From Sarea resinae (taxonomy: Eukaryota): 41,687 nt of DNA. Where the stretch lies: positions 124,001 to 165,687 of the forward strand of contig JAPEUD010000056.1 of NCBI GenBank assembly GCA_026026165.1. The letters run 5' to 3'. Position 1 is the stretch's first letter; each line of letters begins with the position of its first letter. The notes under the pieces were generated by a model. That model was given only the letters and a program-made list of their open reading frames with translations, ran no database searches and was not told the DNA's origin. A program made the position numbers and the translations under genes. Shown in pieces: positions 7,445 to 40,228 of the stretch.

Positions 7445-10400
7445 ATACCTCTCGGGTTTTCGGGTCTTCGTTTTGTCTTTTTACGCCGTATTACACTCTG
7501 ATCGTCAGTGGCTTGGTCGGGCTTTCATTGTTGTTGCGTTGGGAGGGTTTGTCTGGATGGTCTTATAACGGTTTTGCATGATGGGGTTCTCTGCTTGTAC
7601 CATAGGGTTTCGGGCGTCAGACGTGATAGGGAATGATTGCAAATGACTTTTGACATTATTTTATTTGATGCATTTCGGGTGATTTGGTGACCATCGTGGA
7701 TAGTGTGCTTTGGGACTTTGGCCTTGTTTTATATTGATCTATTGGATATTATCAGAAGCAAGGGCTACTCGCAGTATCTGGTAGGTGGTCGTCTCAATAT
7801 TACCTATTTAAAGCATGCTCTATAGCAACCGTCATGGTACGCTGGGCGCGGAAAGCCTCATCTAAAGTATATTGAACCGACAGCAGACGGATAATATGAG
7901 AACTTGATTGATCCTCCTGATAGGCATAGAACTCGAACAGTACTCGCAATTTTCATCTGAAAAGCTTCATAGGTAAATAATGATCGCTCGACGGTTTTAT
8001 CTACGTCTCATTCAAGTATTGCTGATTGCAAGGTATTACTCAGGAAATGCTTCTTTTCAGGTGTTTGCGTAGTATTAGAATAACTGTAGTAGATTTATAT
8101 CAATATACTTCTTATTGCTAGCTTTCTAAGGTGTTGATAATTAATATCAAGAGAGCGGTATATTTCTAAATATATTTTCAAAATAAAAATTAAGTAATGT
8201 TATACTGAAATTAATATATAGCTTTCACCATAGAATGCAACTCGAATACCAGGATAATCTCTTCTAGGTAGGTGATTTTTGATAGATATTCTATTTCTTT
8301 AGAGGGGCATACCTTAATCACCTTACCTACCTTAGGTACTCTACAGTATATACTTCGCTTCGTAGATTCACGTCAACTCGGCTAAGCTCCGCGGAGCAAC
8401 GTACTGTCCTATTTGGAGCGCGCGGAACTGCATGATAATAACAATCAACCAACTAGAACCACCGTAATGTGCATGCTCCATAGCCGATTGGCCATATGTT
8501 ACATCCCCCAATCGCTTTCCGCAGTTTATCTAGTCACAGATTAATTACAATCACCAAAGAAGTGGCATGGGTTCTTCATGGCGGATTTGAGCCAGTCAAT
8601 GGCGACCCGGCTTGATCGCACGTCAGCGGGTGGCTTTCCGTTGGCTCTAAACGGCATAGACTCAGCAGGTCCACTACTCTACTCAGTCCCTGCTCGAAAA
8701 TGGATGGTGGAAAATATTAGCTCCTCCATCCCAACGAATCCTGTCTTTCATATGGGAGTATCCTTAGGAATCTTGCTGGGCTTGCGTGCATGGCGCCTGC
8801 ATGGCGTTGGGACCCTTGGCGCCTCGCGCAATCCATTTCGCTTTGGTCCGCATAGGGCGGTGGTAAGGAGATCCGTGGATAGGTGCACGGTCAGGGCAGT
8901 GATTTGTTGTCAGCGGACAGTAGACCTGATTGGGTGCCAAATGTGTGTCACCTTGTAGCGAAGTCGAAAATTTCATTTTTGCATAGCCTTCGAATCTGAT
9001 AGCCTTCCATCAAAGTTCTGACGCACCGGAAAGATCTCAATCAGAAGGTATCGGATCCGGGGTAACTGAGCTGGCGAGTTGACGAGTCCACCTACCACCC
9101 ACCTATCACTGTGTCTCGGCGTGGACCGAGATGGACACTACCACACGGCTTTGCGGCTTCCGACATGCAGCAAATTCTAGACTTTTCTCACAACATAGTA
9201 CGATACTACCTCACCTTAGCAATCTATCAATAGCCAGAAGACAACAGCAGATTGCACGTTCCGGTGCAAAACCCGACTGTTGGGCTAAGGCACGCAGGTG
9301 TCCCTCGCAGCTCCCTCATCGCTCTCATAGCCGCGTGAATCTGCGTTTGATGCTTGGGGTTGGTAGGTAGCAAAGCCTGCAGGAACGGAAGATGCCATCA
9401 TCCGACGAGTCTCAGATCAGAAGCACACGGGGATCCCGTGTTGAAGGTGCTGACACGGAAGACCAAATTGCTCTTCGGCACCAAATCCCTTCCCTGGACG
9501 GATATCATCCACGTCGCAGCAGGAAGGTTGGAGATGAGCTCCCGTTCCTATGGCTCAGCGTCAATCGGTACAAGTGAAAGAGTGGCTTTACAAATGCACA
9601 GAACTGGCCAGAACATGACCATTCGAGACGAGGCGCCCTGCGTACCTTACATGGATAGGTTCTAACATTCAGTTCCAATCACTCCAATTTCTCCATTTCC
9701 CTCGGGTACAGACCAGGAGCCCTGGAGCGAAGGATTCGACACGTTCCCACTACCTACTTGACACCTGGTAGCACGAGCCAATCAGTCATTTCGATGCTGA
9801 AACGGGCTGAGGCCACTCTCGATGGTACGTCACGGAGTACATGTACGGTATTTCGGAGTACGGGCGTCCATGCTGCGTACTCGTAAGTGCCACAGCCGCG
9901 AAGGGGAAAGACCGGCACAGCCACCACAGCCACGCCTTTACTTGTTCTAGAAGAGGCGACCGGCATTCATCGGCCGCCGATGTAGATGTTAGCGCCATCA
10001 GGATGACGTCGAGGGCATGGGTATCGACCCTCCATAAACCCCGACACCCTTCCTTCCGTCATTGAATTGATATTCATTGCTCTTCATTCGATTGAGAACG
10101 GTCATCGACTGGGAAAGCTAAATCTCGACATCTTCCCACCCATTTTGAAAATCAAGTCCAGTCTACCTCACTTCTCCATTATTAATCCCCCATCCTCTCC
10201 AAAATACACCCACCAAAGGCATTGCCCCATACATTTCGATCGATTCATCCTCGGCTGCACTATCCCTCGACTTCTACGTCCTTCCACTGCTCCTCAGTCA
10301 TACATTCTCCGCCCTTTCTTCGTCTGGCTGGACCACACATCCACACTCTAGCAGCTCGGCTCGGATCTACTTCCGATCTCTGACTGTGTTGCTACTAGAG

Positions 10401-13512: not shown

Positions 13513-18495
<4,983 letters not shown>

Positions 18496-18899: not shown

Positions 18900-18928
18900 A
18901 GAAGTAGATTACCTCAGCATACTTAGAC
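18900..18928 (+). repeat. Left target-site duplication (18900-18908) and left TIR (18909-18928)
   Basis: AGAAGTAGA|TTACCTCAGCATACTTAGAC. Confidence 0.85.
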
Positions 18929-19157
18929 CTCGCTTAGTCATATAGTCTGCTAAGTATAGACCACTATTACCTAACTAGGCAATTAACTAGCTAGAGGTCT
19001 AAGGCACTTTTAACTGACTTTGTATAGGCTAAGCAGGTTATTTATATAGAGGCAATTATTATTAACTTTAAACTATAAGATATCTGCAACTACAACGCTA
19101 TCTGCAATAAAAAGAGGCTAAAAAGAAAGGTCTAGATCTGCTCTATATTTGATTAGA

Positions 19158-21959
19158 ATGTTAGCATCTGCTCCTTTTTCTAGAACTAGTAGGAAGCGCT
19201 ATAAGACAAAGGCTTTATCTGCTGCAGATACACCTTAGAGACTGTAAACTCTACTATCTGCACTGTAGTTATAGCCTAATCTCAATTTGCTACTATTACT
19301 ACTATTATTAATACATCTGCTATTACTGCTTAAGGTGCCTGATTCGCTATTATTATCTTTAGATTTGCTTTTAACGCCTAAGTTATCTGATTTGCCTGCA
19401 TATCTACTATTATATTTGCGTTTATCGCCTAAGATATCTAATCTACTACTGTTATCTTCTCTTTCTACTTTATCTCCTAATACAACTAAGCGTTTAAGCC
19501 TAGAGGAAAAGGTCTAAGGCATCCTAAGGCAACTATAAGAATAGCAGATAACACCTATCTGCTTTATACAACTCTAGCTAGAGAGCACTGTAGAATGTAA
19601 CAAGCGGCAGCAGATAAAGAGAAGAGAAGACCTTCTTAACCTTATCCTTAGTTATAAGAGTCTTTGTACACTTCTAATTAGTGCAGACAAAGGCTAAGCT
19701 GCAGTTGTTAACAGCGCTATTACTCTTATCTGCAATAAGCTAGACAGGCTGCAGGGCAAATATCTGTTGTTTAGGCGATACAATAAGGACCTAGGTTTTA
19801 AAGAGCTTAATATCTCTAGCACTACAGACACTATTAAGCAGATAGCGCCTATACTTACACGTCTTATCTGTAGTGCAGCAGAGGCAAAACAGTCTAGCAC
19901 TGTGTATTAGCAGAGAACCCTAGCAGATAAAGGCTAAATAGTTATAACTACATTAATACTAAGCCTTAGCTGTTTAAGGACTTCTATAAACTGTTTCGCG
20001 CGCCTGTTAGGACTATATTTAAAGGATATAAGGCTAACCTGCTAAGCGTTAAGCGTGCTGTATAGCCTTAGACTTATAGACAGATATCGCACAATTAATA
20101 TGCAGAAGCTGTAGATATTAGAGCAGAGCAAGGAACGTGATATTAACGCCTTCTATTTAGCAGACCTAGCTAACTAAAACAAGGCAAATATCTCCTTTGT
20201 AGCGCAGACATAGGATTTCACAGTGGTCTACAATAACTTTAAGTAGCAACAAAGGGTGCGACACTAGACTGTAGGTAATACCAGAGATTTTTGTTTATAC
20301 ACAACTAGAAAGCTACTGCGCAAACAATGCTTGCTAAACAGACTACTTACTTAAGACATATACTATCTAGATATCTATATAGAGGTAATAGATCTGCTTA
20401 AGGCAGATAGGAATTTTATAGACAAGACACAGACTAAGATATTAACTCACCTTATTGCTAGTTCTATCTGCGCAGCGTTTCTAGAACAGACAGAGGCTAT
20501 ATTCGCAGCAGATAGTGTTTAATTCCTGCAGATACTATGCGTTAATGTTCTTCTGCCCTTACAAACAAAGCATCTCACACTAGGACTAATTACTAAGAGT
20601 AAGGGTTCTATTTCAGGCACATATAATGTGCTTAACAACATATTTGTCTGCTAGCTCAGCTAAGATACAGTCAACTTTAAGAAACAGTTAGTCTTAATAT
20701 TTAGAGATTAGAAAATAGCAAGCCTTATCTGCTCTTACTAAATTAAGCAGGTAGAGGCAGCAGATGCCTACAATCGCCTTGCCTAGGCATTACTAGTGCC
20801 TAGTCTCTTCTACTTACAGATAAACCTTTTAGCATTAATTGTTAGGTCATATTATAGTAGAGAGAGTAATATCTAGCAATACTTAACCCTCTATTTGCAT
20901 ATTAACTTCCTTAGCTATTAGAATATACCTGCAGATAAAGCGCTATTCTACTACTAGTAAGAACTAGTCTAGCATAGCTTTTAGGCGCAGATTGTTGCTC
21001 TATTTATATCGGATTTGCCTGCTAGATTTAAGAACAGGCATAAAGGTTAGATAGCTAAATATATCTGCTAACTAAGTCCTACAGATTTTCTTTAACAGGT
21101 AGAGGATATCTGCTAAAGAGTCTTTTCTACTACTGCCTATTAGGAACTAGCCTAGTACAAAACAAGTAAGGACCTAGCAGATATAGCTTCTTTAGCGCCT
21201 AATTAAAAGCAAAGCTCTTATAAACAGCGTTTGCTGTATGATTTAGAGTATTCTAATTATGTCTGCTTCTTACACTATGTTAAGACATATATAACGTTAA
21301 GGCATGCTATTAAACACGCAGATATTAGGTTGCTTTGCTGCGTTATTGCTTGTAGCTGTCTATATTTTAGTAGGAGTTTATTGCACAACTACTTGCGAGA
21401 AATAATTTGTCTTTAGCAGCTAATATCTACTCCTATCTGTGATTGATATCTGCAGCAGGCAATCCTTGCAAACAGTCTTGTCAGCAACTATACTAGATTA
21501 GACGCCTTCTTTAAGGTCGATTAATTAAACAAACTCTTAAACCTTAAGCTAAAGACTCTTTTGCAGATAAAAGGCAACTCAACATTTAATGTAACAGCGC
21601 TGTTTAAATAGTTAGTGTTAATAAGCAGCTATCTTGCTCTACTACAGGCTTAGTTTGAATTCTTATTTAGCGAGCAGATTAACGCATCTTATCTAGATAG
21701 GTCTGCTGCAGAAGATATTAAAAGTCTTGCTAATCTAATCGCTTAAGATTTAATTATCTGCTACTAAGATCGCTTATCTGTGTATGTTGCACCTAGTCTA
21801 CTACAGTTAGGCGTTAATCAATTAGCGCGCAGAGGATTACCTTTGTTTAACAGCAGATATATAGAACTAGGCGACTAAGTTGTTAGAGATATTAAGGAGG
21901 ATATAGTGCAAGCCTTAGTAGGCTTAGACATAAGCATTTACTTGTATATCTGCTATTAA
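19158..21959 (+). pseudogene. RIP-degraded DUF6589-like (Academ-type) putative transposase, about 930 codons in one frame
   Basis: One frame from ATG 19158. As read: NCFARLLGLYL, VVYNNF (20223), LIFRD*KIASLICS (20694), LLVPSLFYLQINLL (~20790), RHAIKHADIR, FFKVD*LNKLLNLKLK. Reverting transitions gives VVYDNF, IFGDQKT..LIRS, PVPGLFH and EVDRLNELLNLELK, motifs I recognise from DUF6589 proteins. The 3' end is approximate. Confidence 0.8.
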
Positions 21960-22152
21960 TATACAGTTATATTGATATCTTGTTAGGCGCAGGATATATA
22001 GCGTGTGCAGCTAGGGCACAGCAGATATTCTATAGTGTAATGTTCTAATATTATCACTCTATAATATTATGTTCGCAGGTAAAAGACTTGATTTAATACT
22101 AGAAAACGCGTGACAGCACTAACACGCTAATAAACTAACTACTAAGCTAACT

Positions 22153-23494
22153 ACTAGGCCTTATAGCAGACAATAGCTAATATCTTAAGGATGTTTCTAG
22201 ATACCTGTGCTACTTCTGCTCTAAGGTAGGTCACTTCTGCGCCTAGGTCTGCAACCTGCCGTTCTATAGCACCTTGTTCTAGTGCAGATAGCATGATTGA
22301 TTTGCTGCTAGTGCAGATATTTGTCGAAGGCGTTGTAGTAGGCTGTACAAGTGCTTGCTTAGTAATATCGCTCTCCTTAACAGGCTTTTAACTGTCCTTC
22401 TTGCAGCTCTATATACTACATTAGCTTATGCCTAATAAGTGCAGATAGATCTGTTATACCTTCTTTTACAGTAGACTATTGTCTTAATTATTATTTGCTT
22501 GTTTAGCTAATTAATGTGTCACCTGCTGCAAAGGAGGTTGCTCCTAATATAGGGTTAGTAATGTTTAATATCTGCACTGCTAATCTGCTTATAGGCTGCG
22601 TATCATTGTCTTTATTATTATTGTCTGTGTCTGTATTATAGCGGCACAGTTTGCCTGCTACACAGCACTCTACACAGTTGTCCTCTAGCTTTACTATCTG
22701 CCTTTTTAGCCTACTCTAATAGATTATGCATAGAATACCCTTATTAACGCACCTTTTGCATTTCCTAGTGAGTGAAACGCCCTAGTACAGATTATTCACA
22801 ATAAGATTAGCGTGAGTATATGCCTTTTAGCGAGTCTCTAAAAGGCTATCCTACACAGCTAGATTAGAGGCTAGCTAGTTAGGCTAAATCAGACAGCAGA
22901 TATCCTATATACTATCCTAAAAAGTAGACTAGCTTAGTAGCAGACTATCTAGAGAGGGTGTCTAAGCTAGTTAAGCTAGCTAAGCTAGCAAAGAGAGTGT
23001 CTAGGGCGGCAGAGACAGCGTCTAAGGCGGCAGAGACTGTAGAGACATTAGTGACTGCAGTAAAGATAGTTTATTAGACAGCAGAGATAGCAGGCTACGC
23101 GGCATAGACAGTATAGTATCACTAAGAGGAGCGGCTATGTTCTTAACGCTTGCTAGATTATCTAAACGCAGGTTCTTATTATAGGCAGCCACCTCTTCTG
23201 CTGCCTCTATCTCTTAGCGGCTAAAATGCAGCTGTCTTATTAGCTGCGGCTGACTAAGTCATTTATAAGGCGGATCAACATACTAGAAGTAATAACAGTA
23301 GTCTGCTAACATTTGCTACTACTCTTACTATCTTATTTATCTTAACTATCTCTCTACTGTTATTACATTAGTTGTTGTCTTAGATAATAACCTTAGGCTA
23401 TAGCCTATAAGGGTCTTAGTGCTCTAGCCCTCTCCTTAATCACAGCCTTAACGTACTAGTTTAATTCATTATTGTCTGCTTTACTAGGCAGCAT
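22153..23494 (-). pseudogene. RIP-degraded accessory gene of the transposon: P/S-rich linker, Zn2Cys6-like cluster, C-terminal coiled coil
   Basis: In frame at 22760-22644: CKRC-VNKGIL-C-x17-CVEC-CVAGKL-C. The C-terminal IERQVADLGAEVTYLRAEVAQVSRNILKIL has a heptad pattern. Candidate GT..GCTAAT..AG introns at 23283-23232 and 22459-22409. The start and one frame change are unresolved. Confidence 0.6.
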
Positions 23495-23721
23495 CTTAGT
23501 AGCTGTTTAACGCTGATATAATCGCTGCTAATAGGCTGTTAATAAGGGTAGTAATAATGTTAATAATGATAATGCTAATAATGTTGATAATAATAATGCT
23601 AATAATGTTAATAAGGATGTTAATAAGGATGTTATAGTTAGGTAGGTTATAAGACAAATAAAGAGGTTGAATGCAAAGGTGTGCTGCTAACTAATGCAGC
23701 TATATAAGCGAATAGCTTTAC

Positions 23722-23823
23722 ATTCACTATTATTTAGTCTGCCTTTGTTTACCTTCTTTGTTTGCTGTAGATATTCACTGCTATTTAGTCTGCCTTTATT
23801 TACTTCCTTTGTTTGCTGCAGAT
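23722..23823. repeat. Two-copy 51-bp tandem duplication inside the transposon
   Basis: ATTCACTATTATTTAGTCTGCCTTTGTTTACCTTCTTTGTTTGCTGTAGAT at 23722 is repeated at 23773 with transition differences. Confidence 0.85.
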
Positions 23824-23949
23824 ATTTCTATTTATATTAATAGGAGCTAATAGCCGCTGTCTCTTTAGTGCCTTATCTAACGCTAACTTGTTAATAGTTA
23901 TCGATTTACAGCGATAATTAGTGGCTGTTAGCGGCTAGTCAGACAGTTA

Positions 23950-26130
23950 ATTTAACTCTAGTAGCGTTAGTAACAAAGGAGAATTAGCTATAATTAGTGC
24001 ATCCCTATATAAACGCAGAACCTAACTATCTGCGCAGATAAACGCTGCTAATAAGTCTAGATTAGCCTTGTTAAAGTCTCCTCTATCCTATTCTGCACAG
24101 CGAAGCAGCGTTTCTGCGTTGTAGATACTATGCTTCTGATTGCATATCTGCTAAACAATATCAGACGAAATCACACATCCTAGGACTAGGATCTAAATCA
24201 TATCGCTGTATTTCGTCTGCGCCTAGTCTAATATCTATTGCTTAATCTAGCTGATTAAGTGCTTGTTGTTCTTTAACTGCAGCATATCACTGCTAAATAG
24301 TCTAAAGTCAGGCCTTTTAGACAGCTAAAGTTCTAGATTGCAGTTCGAACAGCAGCGTCTGCTAGGAACAGGCTCTTTAGTGCTATTATCTGCTAAGTCT
24401 TTGTTAAAGGTCTGTAGGAATATCTGCTGCAGGCAAGCCTTTTCCTTGTTTGCAAAGTTATATAGCAGATGTAGAAGGTTTGCTCTCTGTTTATACACGC
24501 TTCTAGGCCTTAAATCTGTAGGACAAGGCCTTAATTCAGCAGGTAGAGCTACACGCGATCCTCTTAGAGTCAATTCTTACATAGTCTGTAGTTGACTATC
24601 TGCTTTGTCTAGCAGTGCAATTAAGGCAGAGATAGAGACATTACTTATATTGTTAGAATCCTTACTATCTCTGCAATTGTATTCTTAACTCAGCTGACTT
24701 AACTAGGATAAGGAAACAAGCGTCTGCGCTGCAGTAGCCCTAATCTGCTGCTAACTATTAGTCTTGCTAATACCTCTAAGGTTTGTCTGCACCTTTAGAC
24801 TCTTACACTAGTTATTAACAAGCAGTATTGCCTTACTCTTCTAACTGCTGCTGTGTGCTGCACAACTAAAACGTTGCTAGACTAGGCTTATAAGGCAGTT
24901 GCAGAACAGACTAAAGTAGATAACACGCTTAATATCTGCGATATCTGCTCTTTATACAACTGCATTAGAGCAGAACAATACCTAGATCCTAGACAGTTGT
25001 TCTAAAAATTCATGCTATATCTGCTCCTTGTTATTTGTTGCAAGTGTAGCATAGTATACTCTAATAGTCTGCATTGCTAGCCGCGCTAGATATCTACGCT
25101 CTTACAACTATCTGCGCACCTTATTACAAGCTTCCTTTAGCAATCGCTTGCTGTTTATAAAGACAACTGTCTTTGTTATCTGCTGCAGAGTTAGACAATT
25201 ATTCTAGTAATACTGACTAGCATATTAACCTGATGCTAAACAGTCTAGACTAAGCGCAGCTAATGCTATAGCGTCTAGTCTGCTAGTCCTAGACGTTACA
25301 TCTGCAGCAGACAATAGAGTATCCCTAATACTAGCGCTGCAGCCTTTAATAATAAAGTAGAGGCAATTAAACAATTGCTTGTTGCCTCTGCATATATATT
25401 CTTAGACGATTGCTAGTTCTAGACGATTAATAGAAGTGCAGACAACCTTAACATCTTCTCTAAAGCCTGTAAGTCAGCGTATATCTGCGAACGTATTATT
25501 ATCTAGCGTTGTAGTGCAGGCGAACTAGGGCTTAGTTCTAAGTAATCTGTGTAGTATGCTAAGACTAGCATAAGAACAGCAGAAGAAGGACTAATTCGAC
25601 ACTAGATGCACCTTATCTAAGACTACTAGCAATATCTGCGCCTGCAGTCTAATATCCTTCTATATCTGCTCTAATTTTAGGCTGACAGCTAGTTCTAGCG
25701 ACATTAGGATATAGGTATATTTGCCTATACAGACAGCCTTAAGCAGCAGATAGTTGTTATTATCTCTTGTTATATAAACAGGCTTTATACTAGTGAGTCC
25801 TCTTATCTACGTAGTCTGCTCTTTGCTAATCTTATTTAACAGAAGGATAATAAGAACTATAGCCCTACAGACTAGGCATAAGAGCGACTGCATTATTATG
25901 CTCTTTCTAAACAAGGTCTTAGTAACAAGGAATAAGTCTTGCTTAGTATATAGCAACTAGCAGAGTGCTGTTAGCTGCCCTAGCTGTCTGCTATATAGAT
26001 ATATCGCGCAGATAATAGCGTTAATAGCCTCTTGTTGTTCCTTCTTATCTGCATTATAGAGCTGTTAAATGTTATCTTACAGCTTCTATATTTAACGCTC
26101 TTTGTCTATTAACAGTCTATTATAGGCTAT
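23950..26130 (-). pseudogene. RIP-degraded RecQ-like superfamily 2 (DExH) helicase of the transposon
   Basis: As read: motif I TKTLFRKS (25923-25900, reverts to AKTSFGKS), motif II VLDKVH (DEVH, 25617-25606), motif III FACTTTL, motif IV KTVVFINSK, motif V CSNAVV*RADIADI, motif VI QRFSCAAH (QRFGRAAR), and RecQ Zn-binding CCSNC (~24340). Ends are approximate. Confidence 0.88.
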
Positions 26131-26708
26131 TCTATTACGCTGTTATTACTCTATCTCTTTATCTACCTTGCAGTTATATAACTCTCTGCAGGTGTGTTTC
26201 TTTAGCAGTATCTAACCTAAGCAATAACAGCAGATATAGTTAATAGCAAGGTGGTTATACAGGTGTAGCACAGATAAAAACAGCCCTTACAGGCGCTTAT
26301 AATTGACCTAGAGTGTATCAGAAATTATTCGCTGCAGGTATATAGCAGATATTGCTATAGCAGTCACAAATTAGCATATCTGCTAGAATTAAAGCTGCTT
26401 GCTCCTACTAACGCGTTTTTAACTTTAAGGCATAAGATATCCTAAACTAATAATCCTTATAAGATGTAAAACAGACTATTACATAGCCTTATATATTCTT
26501 TATAGGTGATTAGGTTTTAAAGATACTTGCAGATATAATTGCAGAGATATACTAAGTTAAATATCTGCAACGCGTTAATAACTCGCGCTTAGTCTATACA
26601 AAGTTAGTAAATCTGCCTCAGACTATAATCTCGTGGATTTCCCTTTTAGGAATGATTAGTTATTTATCTAAACAGGCTAGATATTAATCTAGGTCTATAT
26701 GATCTATA

Positions 26709-26737
26709 GTCTAAGCCTACTAAGGTAAAGAAGTAGA
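26709..26737 (-). repeat. Right TIR (26709-26728) and right target-site duplication (26729-26737)
   Basis: GTCTAAGCCTACTAAGGTAA|AGAAGTAGA. Confidence 0.85.
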
Positions 26738-29480
26738 TAAAACTACTAATTAGTCTATAGCTTTATTTATTACCTTTCTACTTCTGTACATATCCTAACC
26801 TTAGGTAGTGTAATTCTACATTTGTTAGTAATCTTAATACTTAGCGATTTAGTACCTTAGTACTGTAGTGCCTTAAAAGCAACATTTATACATTGTGTAA
26901 GAACCTCTATATATACATATATATTAATATTAGGCTACTAAACTTAAAGAGGCTATAAGACTTAGAAATTACACTATTTATTATTTAATACTAGGTACTT
27001 TCTTTTTCTATTAGGCTACCTTCTTCTAAACTTCTAGCTAGAGTAGAGTAGGCTCTAGTAATACTACTAATAACTAATATAGAGAAACTATATATTCTTA
27101 GCACCTATATATATTAGCAAAAATAGCGATCTGCTTCTAAAGACTTTAGAAGGCTAGAATAGCTTATAGAGCTTATAGAAGTTTTAGCCTCTTATAGAGT
27201 TGCTTATTCTATAGAGCTACTAAGGTAGCTTTTATAGCTAGCAAGAGTATATACTATACTCTTAATAGCTCTAGTATTAAAGAGTGTGATAATAAAAGAA
27301 CTAGCTAAGCAGCTAGCTAAGCAAGGCATATAAGGTGCTAAGTCTCTGTAGGTCACGTGACTAAGTCATGTGACTAGGCAGCTAGGTGTGAATATACAAC
27401 ATCTAGAAGCCTATAATGCAAGGTACGTACTAGGTACGTAATCCGGTGACCGGTTCATGCCACTAGTGCAACTTCGCGAACTTAAGGGCTATAGAGTAGG
27501 CTATAGGCTAGGCGCTAATTAATTATAGAGTGAATTTCTATGAATTTTTGTAATTTCCTATTTAGGAAGTTATAGCGTTGATGCCTATAGCGCTAGAGCT
27601 ACTTTCGCTAGAATTTCGCTTGATTTCTCGCTTATATAAGCAATTTAGCAAATTCTTATAAAGTATTACTACATAACATGTAGCATTATAAAGCTATATA
27701 GTAGCATTATAAAAATACATAGTAAATAAGAATATTAGGAAGTTAGTATAGAATTTCATGTTGTAACACTATAGGTGCATGAAATATTTTACATTTTTGC
27801 TGATATAGCAATGCAAAACTAATGCTATTAATAGTTGCTAGTAGACACTAATTTTATAAATCTCTTAAATACTATTTATATGCTCTACACAATGTTTAGC
27901 ACCTATATTAAGTCTATATTATAACTGTCTTAATTTGCTTAAAGTTATATTATTTTTTATACTCTTTAAGTAAAGTTTAGAATTAAATAGGAAAAATTGT
28001 TAAAAATATCAACTAGTGTAAGAGATCAAACTAGATGCACTAGATAAGTGCTAGACAGTCCTAAAGATATAGGAACCGCTAAATTATAATAGCGCCACTA
28101 TGCTTAATAGTTGTAGAGTGTGTCACTATCTTAGGTCTTGCTACTAGTATATCTATAGAGAACTTAAATAGGTAGCAGAACAAGTGTATCAATTAATATA
28201 AGCTATTAGCCTATAGCCTAGTAACTAAGTAATAAGAAGAAGAGAAGAAAACTAACGCGCTAACTGCTTGCTTAACTGTCTAGAAAACTAATAACTAAAT
28301 GCATAAAGAACTAATAATGCCTCTTTACCTAACCCCTAAGAAACACTACTAAGCTAATCAACACCTGCTGACTAATCATTTGCTGGTTCTACCCTATCAC
28401 ACTAGAAGAGAGATTAAATTAAGAACAATAGGTAGATTATATAATTAACTTACAAATATAACTGCTATCTACTACTAGGCTAGGTACCTAGCTGCTACCT
28501 TATAATTAACTCAGCTATTTTAAGACAGTCTTATAACAGTATCACAACCTAGTAGAACTACCTATAGTTTAGATTTTATAAACTGTGTTAAAACTGTGTT
28601 AAGACTGTTACAACACCTACCCTAGGTTGCAGAGATTTAGAACTACCCTTAGTTGCAGCATACTTTTACACACCTATAGAAGTTGCAGAAAACAAATTCA
28701 GAAAATTCAGAAAATTTAGCGAAAAAGTAAATTGACTACAGTGGGAATCGATCCTAGGAGCATTACGTAATCACTAATTATTGACGTTACACTAATTAGG
28801 CTATATAACTTGTTTGAAATCTAGCCCTATAGTAAGGTAGGAGGTAATATATAGCCTACTAAAACTATAATATTATTTTTAGCTAGCACACTACTTTATA
28901 GAGTTACTAGTAATACTAGGATAATATTCTTATAGTTTGCCTCTTAGATTATAAGCTAGAATAACTTAGTTTACTCTACTAGAATAACTTAAATTTAATA
29001 ACTTAAGAGTATAGCTATAGCTAGTAGTATATTATTTAGCCTTATTTATAAGCTTCTTACAGCTATTATAATTAAGTAGTAGAGAAAGTATAGAGGTACC
29101 TAGTAGGTACTAGGTAGGTATAGTAGGTAGGTAGGTAGAAAGGTAGAAAGGTTACTTAGTAGTAGTAGTAGTTTACTTAGTATAGTATTAACTGCTGATT
29201 TTATACATACACCTAGCAATTTACAACGTGTTTTCTAGGTGTCTTATAGGCTATCTAATTTACTATACAATTTGTATAGAGGAAGTAATAGCTAAGGCAA
29301 TAGGCTAAAAATCTTAGCAAAATAAGCAGGTAGTGTAAATAGTAAAATAGGCAGTGCGGTTAGCAATTCCCTACAAGTAGGCTAAATAGTAGCTTAACTA
29401 TAAGTAGAGCGATTCCTATGCCTTTATCTCACTTGCTATAAGTGATTATAGATAGCTATAAACATGAATTGCTAGCATTA
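26738..29480. repeat. AT-rich RIP-degraded repeat relics, family unassigned
   Basis: Strong TpA excess and CCA/TCA depletion, no recoverable long frame. Interrupted by a short unmutated stretch at ~27420-27490. Confidence 0.7.
28733..28810 (-). pseudogene. tRNA-like relic (Pol III A/B boxes) inside RIP-degraded repeat DNA
   Basis: AGTTATA-TAGCCTAATTAGT...GGATCGATTCCCAC-TGTAGTCA, followed by a TTTTT run. A-box-like and B-box-like motifs at tRNA spacing. The acceptor stem is restorable by reverting transitions. Confidence 0.5.
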
Positions 29481-29823
29481 GGAGATGTAACAGAGGCTAG
29501 ATCTTCCTTCAAGCCTTGCGAATGACTTAATACTTCAGCGTGACTGATTTGCAAAGCTAGTACATGCTTCAAACTCCATCGATAGAATGCTCTCAAAAAA
29601 CGCCGTGCGCCAACCAGAAACCGACCGCCCTATGCAAAGCAAAACTGGAAAGTCGAAGCCTACCGTAATGGGGGGACCGCGTCAGACATACTCGCTGTTC
29701 GTTGTTGCATGAAGGCAGTTGCTGCGAGAATGATTCGGCATTGCAAGGTGAGATACGCAAAACAAGAATCAACCCTGTATCCGGTAAGGGTATGCGTGTC
29801 CAAACCATCCTAAGGTCGGTCTC

Positions 29824-32800
29824 TTAGGCTATGATGAGCTGTAGGTCATGCGTTAGAATAACCGCACAATCGGTCAACAACGGCTTGAAAGACTTACCTC
29901 TACAAGCTTTTCAATCAGTGGCGCACATTTCTGCTCTTGCTCCTCTGATTGTTCGGGCGAGAAGCATAAGAGACCACCGAAACCAAACTCTTCCAGGGCA
30001 TTCTCTAGTGCCTCACCTGGATTGGCGGGGGTTTCTACCCTCGGCGAGCAGACGGAGCGAGCAAGAGCGTGAGCATATCGAAGCGTGGAAGGATTCTGAG
30101 AAGTGGATAGGACTTTGCGTAGAACTTTAAATATAAGACCATGTCTGATAGGTTTCATTAGTCCAAGCAGCACACACGAGAAAACTATTAGGAATACAAA
30201 CAAGATAGCAACAATTTTCGGTCTAGAGACAGCAATGCGGTCGAGGAACATTAATGTTCGCTGACTTGCAATATCTTCATGAGCTTGCAAACCGATGATG
30301 CTTAGGATGCCGTTGAGGAGAAGCTCTCGATCTTTAATGGAGTCAAGGTCTATCATCGCCAGATACTCATCGTCTGATATATGGCCAAAGGAGGAAGGGG
30401 AGCCAGCAGTCCATTTTAGCTCTTTCGCCTCGTCATCCGTAGGACTTCCGATACCGAGCAGTGAATAAGGAAGCATACAAATGTTACTTGTGGAGCGACT
30501 TTTCTCCACCTTGTTGGCACTGGCCAATTGGGAGAACGTCGATAACACGCGTACTGTCGTCGGCTTAGTTGCTGGGTCAAGAAAACCCTTAGCTAGGCTC
30601 CCCGCGCACGCAATGTGAAAGTCCCTCGGGCTGAAACGAACGCCATAAAGCTCGTCGAACTCGGCCAATGGTGCTTCGATCGGAACACGCCCGTGGAAAA
30701 GGATCTGGATGAGACTGCCAACTTTGACATCCCCAGATGTTGAGATGACTTGTAATGTTGCCTCTAACAGAGAAGCTGTATGGCTGAACATGGCCGGTAG
30801 GCCTAATCTTACCAGAGCCATGGCAAGCCAGAAAAGTTGGAGTAAATAGCGAGATGTCGTAGGAAGTCTCTTTATCATCTTCGTCAGAGCCTTGATAATC
30901 GCGACCAGCATATCTCTGTCCTGGGTCTTTGAATAATCACTAAGACTATTCTTCAATGCCACCAGGGTCTGATAAAGTAGATCGTCGTCAACGACTGCGG
31001 CGAGACAACCCATCACAGTGAATGCTCGGGGTTGAATAGCAGGGTTACTCTGAAAAGCCGTGCTAGCCACCAAACTCATCCAGCGAGAACGCCAGACATT
31101 GGCATCATCAACGCTCGGAGCTCCGATGAACACAATCTCAAGGAACAGGAACACCAATGTTTCTAGGTTTGAAAATTTCGAAGCCTCTGAGTCCCCATAT
31201 TCTGGACGTAGACTGTCTTCAGTAGAGACCGGGGTCAGACTAAATAGCAGCTCGTGTCTCGCTTCAGAAAGAGATTCCAAGAGACTCTCGAGTCTCACTA
31301 GGTTCGCTTCAGGTAGTGGGAAAGATTGGCACAACGTGTGCACAACATTAGTCAAGAGAGAATGAGTTAGTCGCCTGTGCGTCAGCGAACCGCTGTTGAC
31401 TAACATGGTGATGATATGGAATATCTCTGGCAGATATATTTGGGCTAGATTATTGGTAACGAAGGAGACGGCTTGAAGTATGCGGAGAAGGGCGCTAATC
31501 TCGCCCCATACTTGATTATCGACCAATCTCTTCGTGGGCCGGACAGAAGAGCGATTGAGAGCCTTTCGAATTTTGGCGATGATCTTTCCAGAGACAGTGA
31601 CTGTTCTCAATGAAGCAGCTATAGAACAAATTGCTTCGGTAACATTATCATCCGTATCAGGTCGTAAGGCGTGTTTTATCATCTCATCGAGAAGGATTTC
31701 TGCCACATATTCATCCTTTGCTATCGCAGGCCACACATGCTCCTGAAGGCAAAGGTCCAGGTCCGGATTATGAAGCGCCAGATCCACGAGCTGTCTTACT
31801 ATCGATAAAACGCGATCTCTACCCTTATCACCGTCGTCGTCGAGTGTAAGTACGTGCGTACGGATATTTTGGAGCCAGGGAGACAGATACAAAATGCTCA
31901 TTTGGCGCTGCGTAGGTTGTATTGAATTCCACCCGACGAAAAATTCACACAAAAAATCATGCGTAAGGTGTGGTTCTGACCTTGCAAGCCGCTGGCTGAC
32001 TCCGACCAGCAGTACGATTGACTGAGCCGGTACGCCGAGCCCTTTTTCAGAGTAAGCTAAGATTCGAGACATCACGATAGGAAAGTTCAGGCAGACCTTT
32101 GGCGCTTACGAAGCGCCTATCAAGCGAAAATCGAAATCGCTTTCCCAGAGCGCAGAGCAAGTTGTACGAAGCCAATCGCGTAGGGGTGTCATTACTGGCC
32201 AAATTTGACAGGCAAATGTTGACAAGTGTTCCTGGAACATCGTCGGGCTTCAGAAGGCGGTCAATAGATTTGACCTGTCTGACCTCGCCTCCCTGTTTAG
32301 CTTTAGCATTCCTGATAGCTTGCAATATCTCCATCTTTTTAGAACTCGTGAAGAACATGACAATCTTTCCGCCCTGGGTCTTGAGACCAAATGTATTGTC
32401 ATCTTCTGTCTGGATGGGCGCAGTAGCCTCCTCAATGTCTGCGATCCGAAAAATGTCGTTTACTATCGCACCAAGACGTATGGCGGGAAAGATTTCTTGC
32501 TTTTTTATCGTGGTAATTTGGGCATATTGAGGTCCAACTTTAACCACGACTTCGATTTTGCCCTTCGATTTAGAGAGTCTGGTAACGGGTTGAAAGACAA
32601 AAGTCGGATCGGCCACGACGGAGACTGTAGTAAGAGATAATTAGTTTCGATCACGTCCAACCAAGAATACTCGATGATCATACTCGTGTCCTTTGGCAAC
32701 TGGATTGAACTCATATTGAAATGGCTCTGAAGTTCTTGTAAACCAGAAATCATGAAATACTCGATTTTCTTCGGATGAAATTGACTGTCATCGTTTTCGG

Positions 32801-35800
32801 CAGCAATTCGAAGGGCCCTGCGGAAACACTTTCTGTACACGCTGTTCATGTTATACACATATATTCTTTTCAAGTGCAAAGATATCTCTGACGGTATAAG
32901 TGAGTCTAGCTTCCGTAGCAGCTCGTCGCGAGGATCAGTCAACGTATCGTAAAATGTAGTGTCCATGATAACGCAGAAAGGGCGATGCCATAACCTGCTT
33001 GCGTTCTAGAGTGTCTTAGCAAGGCTACAAGCAAAGTCTTATAATTGCTTACCCTCAGAAATGTGTAAATAACAAGATCATGATCCATGCCACCGGCCTC
33101 TATGTGCCGCAGAATTAGGCAGATAGCTGGCAAACCATCCTAAGTACGTCGTAAGAGTCAATTCAGGATTAAAGAGTCTTGCCTACCTTTGTGTGCCCAC
33201 CAGCATAGATCGCACGAGCAGATACAACGGAGTCTACATTTCTCCCTGCGTTCTTAAGCATGAATTGCTGAAATCTAGAGTATGCCGGAGGGATATTCGC
33301 CGATATCTGAGGCCGATTCCACGACACATCCATTGGTGGACTGCCCAGTCCTGATACTAGAGAGCTCAACTGCATGAAAGGCGTCTGCTCAGAGGTTGCT
33401 TCTAATGACTCGGCGGTTGGTAGTTCTTGTGGACTCATTTTCTGAATTAGGATCATTTGTTGTTTAACATTATCCCAATGATCATAGAGGAATTTATGCA
33501 GCGCAATGCACGATCCGAAATCGAATGACTCCGGTTGACACCAAGCCTCTTGCGTCGCCGGAGCCCTCTGGAAGACAAATCAGCGGCCTGTCCGTATTTC
33601 TCAAGACACCAAGTAGCTCACCGAAATATCCCTCAAAAATTCACTTATCCGACAGATTTGCACCGTCAAGAAGTCATTCAGAGGAAACATGTAAGGTTCC
33701 TTCGCACCAAACAAAACATTGTTGGCCAGATTTTGCAGCACCTTGGCAATGAGGAGCAGACCTCGCCGCATCTCTTTAGTAGGCACGACGTCCACCAATC
33801 CTTCGGCATCTGGCGCAACAATTGCGGGGCAGAAAAACCGTAGAAAAATGAAGGCTCCAACAGCTGTGTATCTTGCATCAGGGAAACGTTGAGAGACCGC
33901 CATAGAAATCGTATGACATATGCGACGAAGGGTTTTCGGAATCCTCTCGGTAGAGTCACAAATATCATCAATGAACACTTTCGTGACTTCCTGGAGCTGC
34001 AATGCATTGTTAGTCAGCTCATGGCCCCCTGTAGCTCGTGCTGGGTCCAATTCTAGGTTCAGATTATCCGCCGCGAGCATAAGTCTCTGAAGCACCTGTT
34101 GCAGCGTCGAACGCAGGTAGGATGATCCTTTCCATTTGGCGTAAACGGATAGCATCTTCGTGGCGACACAATTTCGTCTAAGAAGCTCTGACTCATTTTC
34201 TAAAGAAAATTTCAATGAGAATGGAGAAAAAGAAGAGCGAAGATTCCCCATACCGGTAGTAGCGACTTCATGCTCGACGAGGAGTTTGAGAAAATCAAAC
34301 CCTTTGCCCCTGGTTTCGAAAATGTTAAGTAGAGAGATGGTCAATTCGTCAACCTCGTTACTAGGACAGGCGTCGCAGAATGCGATCGCAAGGGTCATAT
34401 CACTCACGACCAGCTGCACAGATCAGTCAGCGCACACGGTTTAAGCTTTAGTAGCTCGAAGTATTGCTTGATCATCTGGAGGCCGGGAACATCATCGATC
34501 ATGTATCATATCGAGCCACAGAAAAGAAGTCAAAGCTGAAGAGTGGCTGAATATATCTCCTCAATACAACCATGATGATCTCACACTACTGCTGATTTTG
34601 GATCGAACGTACCTCTAAAAGAAGATCATACTTCTCGTTGAGCGCGGAATTTGAGAGCCTGCTAAATTCTGTCCCTTGTATGAGAATGTTGTAGAGCACT
34701 CGCATAAAAGCAGCTCGAATCTCGACATTAGCGTGATATCCAGTCCCTAATGCCTGCTTGAGTCCCACATCTATGTTTGCACTCAAAAGATTTGACAAGC
34801 CTATAATGGCAAGCTCAGTGGTTGAATGTGAATCTTCTCTGGTGACTGATGCCGAAGACGTTTCTCTCCATAATTCAGGATCGATCCTATGCTTGTCCAG
34901 TAATGACAAGAATCGGCCAAAATATTGGTTGAAAAGCTGCGCCCTGATCTCGCTGGAACCTGTCTCACTTTCACTATCAGGCTGCTGCAACGGCAGCCCA
35001 TAGGTCAATTCCACAAGAGCTCTGAGGCACGCGCGATCGACATCATATTTCAGACGAAGAGCAGGGTCTGCGCGAGCCACGGAATGAAAGGGTTTGATGC
35101 CATCGTCTGCAGGCGAAATGGGGCGAGACATCCAATCAAACAAGAGCTCCAGAAGATTATTGCGAGTAATCGATTCATGCCGCAAGCTCAACATCTCCTT
35201 CTTCCTGGTGACAACTTCACAGAGCTGGCACACTTTGATCTTTAGCCTCAGCACGGTAGTGGTATCCATCGAGCAAGACTGGGCATAGCGAGCTAGATTC
35301 AATGATAATGAGCCGAAATCGACGGAGAAGAAGGCCTCATGAGATTTGTCCAAACGATCCACGATAGTCCTCATCAAAGAGGCCACTTGCTCCGCGAAGG
35401 TAATGCGAGTCTCCTCGGACACACTTATTTGACCATCAAATACGCTTGCGACTTCAGACTCCAATGCTTGGAAGAATTGTACGTAGAGTTTGGGGTTCAG
35501 CTCAGTACCGAGAAAATCCCTCGTAGCTTCGCGCACTTGGAGATTACTACAGGTCAATAATTGAAGGCAATCAATGTTGAACCTGTCGAGGAGCGAATAA
35601 CCATCTCCCTCAGCAGAAAGTCGATCAATCCAGCGAAGTCCCGCTAACATCGTATCGTCAACGGGTACGTCCAGGTCTGACACGCAGGATCCTCCTAATG
35701 ATGCTAGAAATCCCGAGTAATTACGCCATTCCATGAAAATCTGGGTATCAGTTGCGGTCTGAGAACGTTCTTCTGGCGCGTGGACCTGAGATTTTGGAGC

Positions 35801-38683
35801 AAGGAAAACGGCACTTAATCTTCTCCATCGTGAGAACACAACTTCCCACGCAGTCAATATACCTGCTGTTGGGCGTGACATCTTTAGTAAGAGACGGCGG
35901 AAACGTTTCTGGAAGGCAACCAGGCCGGTGAGGCGAAACGTCTGAGAAGACAGCTCCAGGTAAACCTCCGAGTTTCTCAACATAGTCAATGGAGACCTTC
36001 CTAATTCTGCTTCATTCTCTGTCAAAAGGCCTTCCTCGCAAAATAAAGCTAAGCAACTGGTTGCCGCAGCACAAAGCTTCAAGTCACTCGAACAAAGTAA
36101 AATCAGAAATGCGACTTCCAATGCAGCGGACGCTGCTGCTCGTTCTGAGATCTCTCTCCCGGCAGCAATCATGGTTGCAGAATCCTGCGGACATCGAGTT
36201 GTGTGAGTAGAGCTAGAAATTCTGCTAAGTACCAAAGACTGACCTTTTGAGACTTGAGAAATGACAATCTGAGCTCTAAGTAATCATGGATAAAATTAAT
36301 AACAGTCCTCGTCGCACGGCCATTGATTCCGCCGTCAATTATCTTGCTCGCAAGTGTGGATAGAACAAGTGATCTGGGGAAATTATCAATTAGCATCGCC
36401 ATGGCCAACACGAAGCTATTATGAGATCAAAAATTTGGTTAGGCAATAGGACACGAGCAATTCTGATCGACCATCAACAACGGCTGAAAGAAAATTCTCG
36501 ACTTACGTTGCTCGCCAGAAGTTCGCGTGGAACCCCTTGAAGTGCCTCTCCCGGCTCTTCTTCAGAAGACTGGTCACATTGTGTTCCATTACTTTTCTAG
36601 AAATGATGCTGGCAAATATTCGAAGCTTCTCATCGTCGACTCCAAGAAAAGCAACGAAGGGGCGGAACCCTGCCTCAAAGAATTTGTTGTAGCCAGCTTC
36701 GTCACTGGGTGCTCCGTCAAAGAGCACCATAGGGCGGACGGTTAAAAATTTCAGCACATAGAATTGGAGTCCTGGACGCTGCTGCTCAATCCTATCGTCG
36801 ACATCTCTACGCTTTTCAGAAGTAGTGCCGTCCTTGGTCGACACCTTTCTGTCATTAGATAACACGCTCTGACCTTCTCAGTAATTCTGCTGCAGAAGAC
36901 CGGGAGAAAGTACACACCTGTAGACACGTCCTAAGTGAAGGAGCTATGGCTTCGAATAGAATATGATATTTGTCACATTCTGGGTCTCGCGCAAGGTGAA
37001 TGCAGGCCTCTAAAAGCGCAATCGGATATTGCACCGGGGCCTGCGGGTCTAGACATCGGACAACCGCATTATCGAGGATGGAATCAACGTCCAGGCGAGC
37101 GAGACTAACGAGGACTTCGGTCATCAATTTACGAGGTATAGAGTTTTGGTCACCCTCAGAACGAATTTCCTTGCCAAATAACTCATCTCGAAGCTCATCT
37201 TGGATTGCCAGAGCGTAGCTCGAAAGCGCCGACTCGCTGTCCAACGAAAAGTGCCGCGATACTTTGCATACTAGAACAAGGCAGTATGTTGCTGCATCGC
37301 GGTTCCTGGTAGACCGCAGACTTTTCCTTAACCCTTCCAAGAACGTTGCTCTTTTCGCCACATTGACATTTTTGGCGTCCTTCATATGCTCAGCAACCCA
37401 AAAGACCTCTGGAGTGAGCAGAATCAGCGTCAGTTGCAATGGCCATGCTATTCCTTTCCTGCGGTTCATGTCCGCAACTGAGTTAAACATATCGGAAAAA
37501 GTCTCTGCTGCGCCATCCAATCTCTTCTGCGTCGCATGCAGATCAATGAATTCGCCAGGGAAGTTTTCCAGCCAACGCAGTATAGTCGATGGTAGCAGCA
37601 CGGCAATGGAGTTCTGGGCGGAGCTTTTTAGATGCAGGAAGCATCCACACAGTTCCTGTAAAACGAGAACTAATTTTCTTTCGTTTGCCCACAGGTGAGG
37701 TAGCACTTGGATGCCGGCCAAGGCATGTTTTTCCGTCTCAGCAGTTGCAGAAATGCCATCCATGCTTCCAGCATTCGCAGCATGTCCTCCGGGAGAAAAT
37801 CTAAGATTTTTCAGGTGGCCCTGGAGAAATGTGAACACAAGAGACCAATTAGACGCGGATAAGTATTGGATGACAGTCGCGACTGGTTCGTCGATACCGA
37901 GAAGGTCATCGTCGTACTCATACCACTTCTCTGCACGGCGTCTGCCGGTGTTATCCCACCGCATGCATGGCTCAATTTCCAAGAACTCGAAAGGTGGCAG
38001 CTGGCAGTCAGTAGGGATAGGTTTAAGTATCCTGGTCAAAACTTCGAGGGCACGCGCCACCAAGGGATCCCTGAGCCTCTGAGGGAGAAGCCGGCTCGAT
38101 TTATGTCTGTCATGGCCTCGGCGAGGTTGAGATCCACTCGAACTTATTGAAGGTGCGTTCGAATAACTATCGGAAGATGAATGTGCTGACCACGAATCCC
38201 TCCGCACTTCGAGGCGTTCTCGATCCCTCCGTTCGTTGCGATCGTTCTCCTCCGCGTAGGTGGTCCAATTTGTCGTACAGCAATCCGCAAGTAGCTGTAT
38301 AACATAGGCTTCAGAGCGCAGCACGCTTTCAGGGGACGAGCTCTCTCGGAATTGCTATATTCGTTGCTTATAAGCTTATGCCTTGGCCAATACGGAAAAG
38401 TAGCATATCAACAAACCTTATGCAAATGTTCCAAAAGCGCTGTAATCTCTTCAATCACAGTATCTATAGATTGCTTGCTTATCTCTATCAGTGTCGTGCA
38501 AGTAAGACGGATGACTTCGTCACGGCTGATGTCGCTGAGTTCGCCATCGGAATAGAGTGGGAGCTAAACAACACTGGTCAGACTCTACATCTGTTTGACA
38601 CAGCAGATATTTGGTTGCCAGCTGCCTACCTTGTTTTTAAGCCTTTCGACTAGGGAACGAACCAGCCCGGTTTCGCCGTTCAT
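29824..38683 (-). CDS. IRA2: Neurofibromin / Ira1-Ira2-like Ras GTPase-activating protein, multi-exon
   Basis: RasGAP domain (LLRRNCVATKML, AFIFLRFFCPAIVAP, LLLIAKVLQNLAN), Sec14-like segment (KRIYVYNMNS), PH-like segment, and C-terminal RWMSLVASTAFQSNPAIQPRAF. Start MNGETGLVRSLVERL at 38683; last exon LIIA* ends at 29824. Internal ORFs are joined by GT-AG introns. Confidence 0.92.
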
Positions 38684-39409
38684 GGTCCCTGGTAACTCTT
38701 GGGTTTTGCAATTGACACGTTCGCATGGACATGAGGCTGACGAGCGCTGTTCTACAGGCCTTCGTGCAGTTATTCGATCGTTCTCTCGTTCTTAAATTGC
38801 CCTCGCCTCGCCATCTGACCTTGAGGACTTTCGAGGACGCATCCGTGGTCTAGATCAATATATCAGTTGTGTAAGGTCGTGGGGCACGAATACGTATCTC
38901 GCGGTGAGCTATGTAAGGAGGTACGGTAGGTACTGCAACTTCGTTAGAATGGCGAAGACCGCGACGTACGAAGTACCTAGTACTTCGTACTCAAGGGGTC
39001 TACTCTGTACAAACTGTAAAGCAGAATGCTGCTGAGCTTAAAGACTGTAGCGCTAGGACATCTATAAGGTTCTACTACTCGCGCTGTTTAGAGGCTTTTG
39101 CTATGCTAATTTAGTTCTCTTTAAATAATTAGGTTACTAGGAAATAATATTTTATATTTATTAAGAATTATATATATATAAGGTATTAAGTAGATCTAAG
39201 TACTACTTTAGTAGCCTTTTAACTTTAAAATAAAAACTTTAATACTTATAGGTATACTTTCTCTCTCTAAGTCTTTAGTTAAAGAGAAAGAGTATCTATT
39301 AAGTACTTAAGTGCTTTCTCTCTAAGTTTTAACACTTATTTTAGGTTTAATTTTAGCAAACTAAGTACTATATAGTATAAAAGATTATACACTCTAATTA
39401 GGTAATTAC

Positions 39410-39775
39410 TATTAGTATTATAACTTTAATTCTAGTTACTCTTAAGTATCTAAACTATTATAAACTATTATAAAATAGTATAGATATATCTAGAAGCTTT
39501 TATAGACCTATAAAAGCTAATAGAACTCTATAAAAACTCTATAGAATCTTATAAAATATTCTAAAAGATTCTATAGCTATACTAACTAAGTACTAAGTAT
39601 CTTAGAACATACTAAAACTATTTATAAGTCTATAGAACTTAACTTCTATAATATACCTAGGTACTAGAGTTATATAACTATCCTTTAACTTTCTTAAAAA
39701 GTATATATTATTATTATTAGTTTATTAATTACAAATTACTTATATAATTACCTAGTAGTTATTACTAGAAGTTAT
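39410..39775 (+). mobile_element. Old, heavily RIP-mutated LTR copy A
   Basis: Begins TATTAGTATTATAACTTTAATTCTAG and is colinear with copies C and D but more diverged. The 3' end is approximate. Confidence 0.65.
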
Positions 39776-39799
39776 ATCTATATAATAATTATCTTATTA

Positions 39800-40228
39800 T
39801 ATATTATATATTATAAACTTAGAGATTCTAGCTATAGAGGTGTAAGGCAGTTAATATATAGACTTAATTAACTTACTAGAAACTTCTAGTAATAACTAAT
39901 TACATAAGTGATTTGTAAGAAAGTTAGAGAATAGTTGTGTAACTCTTATATTATAGAGATTCTATAGATATCTAAAAGATTCTATAGATATCTAAGAGAT
40001 TCTATAGACTACTAGATAGTTCTAAAACATTCTAAAGAGTTCTAAAAGGTTCTAGATACTTAGTTAGTATACCTATAGAATCTTCTAGAATATTCTATAA
40101 TATTCTATAGAGTTCTATTAGCTTCTATAGGTCTATAGAAGCTTCTAGATATATCTATACTATTATATAACATTCTATAACAGTCTAGATACTTAAGAGT
40201 AACTAGAATTAAGGTTATAATTCTAATA
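39800..40228 (-). mobile_element. LTR copy B (inverted)
   Basis: Near-perfect reverse complement of 40605-41050, differing almost only by transitions. Confidence 0.85.

Follow-up and report, generated by a model that had tools for sequence, protein, structure and literature searches.

A conserved third gene in a clade of AcademH-like fungal transposons, and the dispersed DNA word that accompanies it

The window, a 41,687-nucleotide stretch of a Sarea resinae contig, contains a transposon in which the segment between the transposase and helicase genes holds six regularly spaced cysteine codons. The initial annotation read this segment as a third gene, encoding a zinc cluster and a coiled coil and making the transposon a three-component element. 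We know of no third ORF of this kind in described AcademH families. This raises the question of whether the gene is real or was created by the mutations that degraded the element, and what its product might do. We are almost certain that it is a genuine element gene, and the window holds a dead copy of an accessory gene that is conserved in one clade of AcademH-like fungal transposons.

The element and its inactivation

The element spans positions 18909–26728 of the window (7,820 bp), limits given by its terminal inverted repeats (TIRs) and by homology among six copies, and is bounded by identical 9-bp target-site duplications (18900–18908 and 26729–26737). The left TIR (18909–18929, plus strand), which starts TTACCTCAG, marks the start of homology in all six copies, and the right TIR (26708–26728, minus strand) was placed by the same comparison. 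A DUF6589 transposase (PF20231, E 4e-28), broken by repeat-induced point mutation (RIP), lies on the plus strand at 19485–21941, which is the extent of a tblastn match with the family-B protein and not the true start and stop. DUF6589 we take to be the Academ transposase; no relative with a solved structure was found for it. On the minus strand a RecQ-like helicase, also RIP-broken, runs from an approximate start at 26061 to a stop codon at 23802–23800 (23800–26061; 55% to the family-B helicase by tblastn). The family-B helicase contains DEAD, Helicase_C and RecQ_Zn_bind domains (Pfam), which were also found in the element loci L031 and L039.

The genome holds 14 DUF6589 loci, two of them identical (L034 and L035), which form three element families about 70% alike. 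The window copy and five further copies elsewhere in the genome make up family A, and 9-bp duplications were found in all six of these and in six of six B and C copies with both ends available. Among the variable ungapped columns of the family-A copies, 1,033 show C/T or A/G differences and 2 show any other, a transition excess that points to RIP. RIP has killed this AcademH-like transposon in the window, and no live copy was seen in the genome.

AcademH elements are described as producing target-site duplications of 9 or 10 bp (PMC10045372) and as low in copy number in ascomycetes (PMC10799480, PMC5751038). On these accounts the present element resembles them in its 9-bp duplications, its transposase with a RecQ-like helicase (RecQ-related, superfamily 2), its TIRs and its low copy number, and is unlike AcademH as described in the citing papers in that it has a dispersed DNA word and, with introns, a third gene. 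No zinc-cluster gene or dispersed word is described for Academ elements in the literature covered, to which the original AcademH description and Repbase do not belong, so an earlier mention is possible. KolobokH is likewise reported as a fungal DNA transposon with a RecQ helicase; its helicase is described as lying downstream of the transposase domain (PMC9587614), whereas here the helicase is a separate, convergent gene and the duplication is 9 bp.

Several details of the element were noted along the way. Within 18909–26728, RIP strikes CpA and CpG alike and varies with the 5′ base, with rates per copy in the family-A element of 0.65 for CCG, 0.60 for CCA, 0.50 for TCA, 0.43 for TCG, 0.10 for ACG and 0.06 for GCG. 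One DNA sequencing run, which may be the source sample, held transition alleles only. Both ends (18909–19010 and 26620–26728) are self-folding, with the CTCAGACC of the TIR inverted again about 90 bases inward in all related elements examined, and the copy on C14 carries an insertion of about 330 bases at the site equivalent to window positions 26064–26077.

The third gene and its conservation

After reversion of transitions, the third gene reads as five exons and 378 codons on the minus strand, from 23494 to 22154; eight stops, all TAG or TAA, remain in the reverted frame, and the model on the unreverted window copy has 20. Exon 1 (23409–23494) opens with an ATG at 23494, encodes a short acidic helix and has similar counterparts in families B and C. 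Exon 2 (23284–23356) is followed by exon 3 (22593–23231), which encodes an acidic and P/S-rich tract, a conserved helix and the six-cysteine domain, and then by exon 4 (22460–22543) and exon 5 (22154–22408), which encodes a basic patch, a P/S/T linker, the coiled coil and the stop. The order of parts is therefore a low-complexity N-terminus, the six-cysteine domain, a basic patch and a C-terminal coiled coil. The P/S-rich tract (22932–23135, minus strand) had been claimed only for the reverted sequence, and rightly so, as proline occupies 7 of 68 positions in the window copy and 17 of 68 in the consensus; the C-terminal heptad repeat was also found as described, at 22267–22172. The exon 5 product matches the C-terminus of the annotated protein P0001 at 58% over 26 amino acids.

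The introns were correctly suspected and undercounted: there are four, of 52, 52, 49 and 51 nt, and not two. Intron 1 (23357–23408, phase 2) and intron 3 (22544–22592, phase 0) are new; the first intron is also in phase 2 in both third-gene copies of the un-RIPed metagenomic element L039 (g1 and g2), and intron 3 has equivalents in family B and L039. Intron 2 occupies 23232–23283, and intron 4 (22409–22459, phase 0) shares its phase and its AAG|GTATG context with family B and L039. Overall, the phases are 2,0,0,0 in the window gene and 2,2,0,0 in the L039 copies. Two smaller readings did not survive comparison among copies. Where branch sites with GCTAAT had been proposed, the consensus has GCTGAC, and the TATA-like sequence near 23701 (23699–23706, minus strand) is TATATA in the window copy alone and TGTATA in the other five of six, which makes it a RIP product and excludes it as a promoter element.

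The cysteine pattern C-x2-C-x6-C-x17-C-x2-C-x6-C is present on the minus strand at 22760–22644 as claimed, with one TAG within the loop. A looser version of it arose in 2 of 1000 order-3 Markov simulations of the element. That RIP had made these codons out of arginine codons was one concern, and the copies exclude it. All six codons specify Cys in all six family-A copies, and five of them lie in RIP-poor contexts (ACG and GCG, 0.06–0.10 per copy); the fourth lies in the RIP-hot CCG context (0.65), yet families B and C, like un-RIPed L039, also have Cys there. Only an extra, seventh cysteine (forming 'CC') is a RIP product, being Arg in L031, L033 and L036.

Nor is the segment peculiar to the window copy. 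The six cysteines occupy the same place and strand in 12 of the 14 DUF6589 loci, five remain in L037, and the segment is deleted in L038; it is thus found in 13 of 14 loci, and in elements of another fungus besides. L038 and L074 (9124–11349) are internally deleted elements that have both termini and 9-bp duplications, lack the third gene and keep the dispersed motif discussed below. RIP hides the gene from annotation: in P0001, the NCBI model (labelled Sarea resinae) for the copy with the least damage, the cysteines are spliced out.

Outside Sarea resinae, a metagenome scan with the transposase gave 48 loci, 13 of which also matched the helicase; L075 and L084 were too fragmentary and were left out, leaving 11 relatives. 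Three of these (L039, L049 and L055, from two families) carry the domain twice, in the interval between transposase and helicase, where the initial annotation proposed to look for homologues, and on the helicase strand. The other eight lack the gene, and in most of them transposase and helicase nearly abut. This arrangement, and with it the notion of a three-component element, therefore holds within one clade, and elsewhere the elements have two genes. A transposase tree of 24 rows places all six gene-bearing rows in one group (support 100/99), together with the gene-less L070 and two partial loci. In un-RIPed L039, both copies are free of stops, consist of five exons and arrange their parts in the same order; the third gene matches the L039 domain in a profile comparison at 93% (E 3.6e-7). 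Among annotated proteins, one from Cenococcum geophilum shares 84% identity with g1, and its last two splices are the same. The terminal repeat is also shared by L049 and L055, and their target-site duplications, like that of L074, are 9 bp long. In L039, a stretch of about 670 bases (7451–8119) that separates the third genes from the helicase stop contains open, repetitive, Ser/Gln-rich frames with no Pfam match.

Selection on the gene was measurable in two ways. Between the un-RIPed L039 copies, the dN/dS comparison that had been called for gave 0.32 (0.16–0.64) for the Cys domain and 0.27 (0.12–0.56) for the coiled coil, compared with 0.85 for the N-terminal part and 0.65 for the linker. 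Between families, transversions were used, since RIP does not make them. Across the core (codons 23–101), each of the three family pairs had a lower share of them at codon position 2 than at 4-fold sites (10/79 vs 10/21, 7/79 vs 7/23 and 5/79 vs 10/20; p 0.001, 0.015 and 2e-5); for the A–C pair the difference was not significant across the full 109 codons (p 0.41). The Cys domain and coiled coil are under purifying selection, and the N-terminal half is under little constraint.

A RIP artefact, or a captured and non-functional fragment of a host gene, can accordingly be given almost no credence. What speaks for it are the stops in the window copy and two remnants, L090 (C46:74328) and L091 (C71:160272): each is a decayed six-Cys domain, and neither a transposase nor a helicase lies in the 5.0 and 3.5 kb examined. 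These are outweighed by the intact L039 copies, the purifying selection and the conserved introns, which refute it. In a search of the genome with the third-gene protein, the best 15 matches scored comprised 13 in elements and the two remnants, with no intact host gene or donor among them; recent capture is rejected on that basis, with capture in deep time still conceivable. With the cysteines preserved and the segment shared among copies, the central claim stands: the third gene is real and belongs to a transposon with a DUF6589 transposase and a RecQ-like helicase.

The six-cysteine domain and its relatives

The predicted product is a nuclear-type protein of about 380–450 amino acids, which combines a six-Cys zinc domain of non-canonical form with a coiled coil at its C-terminus. 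A Trp-rich helix conserved in the alignments (22761–22874, minus strand), at residues 26–39 of the predicted model, precedes the cysteines and belongs to the same domain. The CX2CX6C..CX2CX6C spacing is that of the fungal Gal4-type binuclear zinc cluster, whose loop is typically about 5–12 residues, and in which Lys18 of Gal4, four residues after Cys2, is a basic recognition residue and CGG the usual half-site. The spacing CX2CX6C ... CX2CX6-8C is invariant in the domain alignments. Additional likenesses are the downstream coiled coil and a candidate site that contains CGG. The predicted fold comes nearest to the Zn2Cys6 proteins Put3, Pho7, Gal4 and Leu3, at the weak scores given below.

The label 'Gal4-type', nevertheless, is not sustained. 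The loop had been called slightly long, and it is: 17 residues here and 13–21 across 21 domains. The domain is central, 100 residues from the coiled coil, and has an additional N-terminal helix. Glycine occupies the position of the Gal4 recognition lysine (Cys2+4) in 19 of the 21 domains, and arginine comes after Cys5 in 17 of 21 and after Cys2 in one. Scores against Pfam Zn_clus (PF00172, cut-off 21 bits) were 17.3 bits for L031 and 14–18 bits for the L039 exons; one isolated first half reached 21.3 bits, over profile positions 17–34 only. In every case the first half of the motif aligns to the second half of the profile, and with weak scores the first half aligns to Gal4 residues 25–40 and the second to residues 8–23. 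The domain thus appears to be Zn2Cys6-like and outside PF00172, and the weak alignments are suggestive of swapped halves. A first fold from 6 sequences (pLDDT 41) was discarded; the model predicted from 20 sequences has a pLDDT of 86, and in a Foldseek search with it Zn2Cys6 DNA-binding domains fill the first ten places, with E values of 2–6. A VIA search with the same model gave no match at Z 2.

A profile search of 1.84 billion proteins returned 15 matches: 11 with the helix-plus-six-Cys domain, all of those with a taxon label being fungal; P0001; and three (P0002, P0003 and P0006) that were dropped as repeat-driven noise. P0004, P0005, P0007, P0008, P0010 and P0012 are fungal proteins with two copies of the long-loop domain, several of them beside C2H2 fingers. 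Word-indexed searches yielded only P0001 and one new relative, P0037, in which Atlas features over residues 1–60 were all below 0.9 and give no more than a lead. Scores against DUF3716 (PF12511, cut-off 22 bits) were below the cut-off, at 11–15 bits for L039, with weak matches in 5 of 11 domains, and the element loci were not among the three DUF3716 matches in the genome. REP9-1 and REP9-2, of the Zymoseptoria IS3EU element REP9, are described as six-Cys DUF3716 accessory genes inside a fungal TIR transposon; REP9 belongs to another superfamily, with a 6-bp duplication and an integrase-like transposase (PMC8232023), and the match of the third gene to DUF3716 is sub-threshold.

A dispersed DNA word and the possible role of the third protein

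A search for end-binding sites revealed that the hexamer ATCCGC (or GCGGAT) is scattered throughout the gene-bearing elements. In the window, 69 ATC[C/T]GC sites lie on both strands of 18909–26728; 68 are ATCTGC, the RIP form, and 30 of these are ATCCGC in another copy. Counts of ATCCGC are 52 in L031 (8.5 expected), 53 in L039, 46 in L049 and 35 in L055. The highest-ranking 6-mer of all five gene-bearing elements tested is this one or a hexamer that overlaps it (3.1–6.5 per kb), compared with 0–0.75 per kb in seven of seven gene-less elements outside the clade and 0.3–0.4 in host flanks. The non-autonomous L074 retains 4.9 per kb.

The excess extends into transposase and helicase codons, in several frames and both orientations. 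Against synonymous codon shuffles, three coding sequences have 20 sites vs 5.1, 16 vs 5.0 and 15 vs 3.7 (each 0/1000), and a fourth has 9 vs 3.1 expected (2/1000). No excess was seen in any of ten coding sequences from gene-less elements or in two host genes (at least 125/1000 shuffles). Sites turn over between genomes (2/13 and 0/15 shared) and are kept between the tandem units of L039 (7/8 and 7/10, vs 31% for other 6-mers). The shuffles and this conservation indicate selection on the word itself: elements of the gene-bearing clade are strewn from end to end with (AT)ATCCGC, selected as a DNA word. RIP did not spare the sites (0.71 vs 0.63 per copy). No enrichment at the ends was seen across the element, and recognition of the ends by the third protein, one of the roles first suggested, is therefore not favoured.

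The nearest known parallel is VANC of the Arabidopsis VANDAL transposons (PMC5735166), described as an element-encoded accessory protein with a short, dense motif in its own family, and an example of the sequence-specific counter-silencing by transposons that is documented in plants; no fungal case was found in the literature covered. A dense, short motif specific to the element family is what ATCCGC provides. The parallel is one of analogy, with homology not expected: VANC sites are reported mostly as non-coding tandem arrays in one orientation, whereas ATCCGC is scattered over the two strands and enters coding sequence. The function of VANC is demonstrated (PMC5735166), whereas that of the third gene is a proposal. 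By this analogy, the third protein would oligomerise through its coiled coil and its zinc domain would bind the dispersed ATCCGC sites, ATATCCGCA being the candidate site for the L039 g1 and g2 domains. Bound protein might then coat its own element family, with the high density of sites conferring family specificity, and the likely purpose would be continued transcription of the element or its escape from heterochromatin, by VANC-like anti-silencing or transactivation, rather than strand cutting. It would be dispensable in cis and act in trans on deleted copies.

We give even chances to the third protein reading the motif. A role in activation or anti-silencing is put slightly lower, and so is binding of the motif as a mark of its own element, in the manner of VANC. 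The broader picture, of a clade that would supply a sequence-specific chromatin regulator of its own, in the form of a coiled-coil protein with a half-swapped zinc cluster, and would have recast its DNA, transposase and helicase codons included, so as to hold about five sites per kb, as a fungal counterpart of VANC with different words (ATCCGC, ACTGCT) in different Academ lineages, is tentative and somewhat doubtful. Evidence against motif-reading includes the ACTGCT lineage, in which the gene-less L056 and L059 have another dispersed word (42 and 20 sites), which is more frequent than in codon shuffles for four of five coding stretches and is also the top word in L061 and L077, so that dispersed words can exist with no third gene in cis. 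Inside the clade, the transposase of gene-less L070 retains 5 ATCCGC sites vs 1.0 expected, and L041, which may or may not carry the third gene, has no excess. Gene and motif occur together in one clade, a correlation worth about one independent event; the recognition lysines are missing; the same word would be used by domains only 22–26% identical; and the lack of RIP shielding and the death of every copy in the genome weigh on the same side. As a side observation, (G/A)ACTGCT is strewn inside coding sequence along L056 (418–7439), L059 (2293–7799), L061 and L077, and L076 is rich in ATATTG.

Harbinger transposases have a Myb-like partner protein, and on that model the dispersed words could be read by the transposase (or the helicase, or a host factor), with the third protein serving as a transposition helper in end binding, target choice or chaperoning. 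The ACTGCT lineage and L070 would suit a transposase reader, as would the few ATCCGC sites in the subterminal hairpins and a preprint describing a plant transposase that alone activates cognate copies sequence-specifically (10.64898/2026.08.24.746577). Yet six of eight gene-less lineages have no strong word despite a transposase and helicase, two-gene elements with related termini exist, so that transposition does not need the third protein, and the motif is not enriched at the ends; we regard this as unlikely. A selected passenger module that has nothing to do with the motif, passes from one transposon family to another and affects the host, in the way of REP9-1 in Zymoseptoria, is more improbable again. 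It draws on the related domains in other fungal proteins, on the weak DUF3716 matches, and on reports that passenger genes pass between fungal transposon families (PMC12730594) and that one of the six-Cys DUF3716 genes riding the IS3EU element lowers pycnidia formation (PMC8232023). The doubled cassette of L055 (11550–16880) is also about 85% identical in nucleotides to that of L039, with transposases 48% identical and a sister, L070, that has no cassette, a likeness that could reflect either exchange between families or loss. A passenger sits poorly, in turn, with a position, orientation and exon pattern fixed across two distant fungi and five families, and with the co-occurrence of a CGG-containing word. 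Returning to motif-reading by the third protein, the intact L039 element, a candidate protein and a candidate site reduce the question to a single binding assay. Should the protein prove not to read the word, a selected hexamer dispersed inside transposase and helicase codons would still be unusual, and so, in either case, is a zinc cluster with apparently swapped halves.

The neighbours of the element are ordinary host genes, encoding the pentafunctional AROM protein (13655–18495) and a neurofibromin-like RasGAP (29874–38354). Between the element and the latter, positions 26729–29500 form a separate RIPed stretch with several multi-copy repeats (70 matches), probably solo LTRs or small elements, in which the motif is not in excess. 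Towards the end of the window, 39400–41687 is very AT-rich and contains long inverted repeats (446 bp at 91%).
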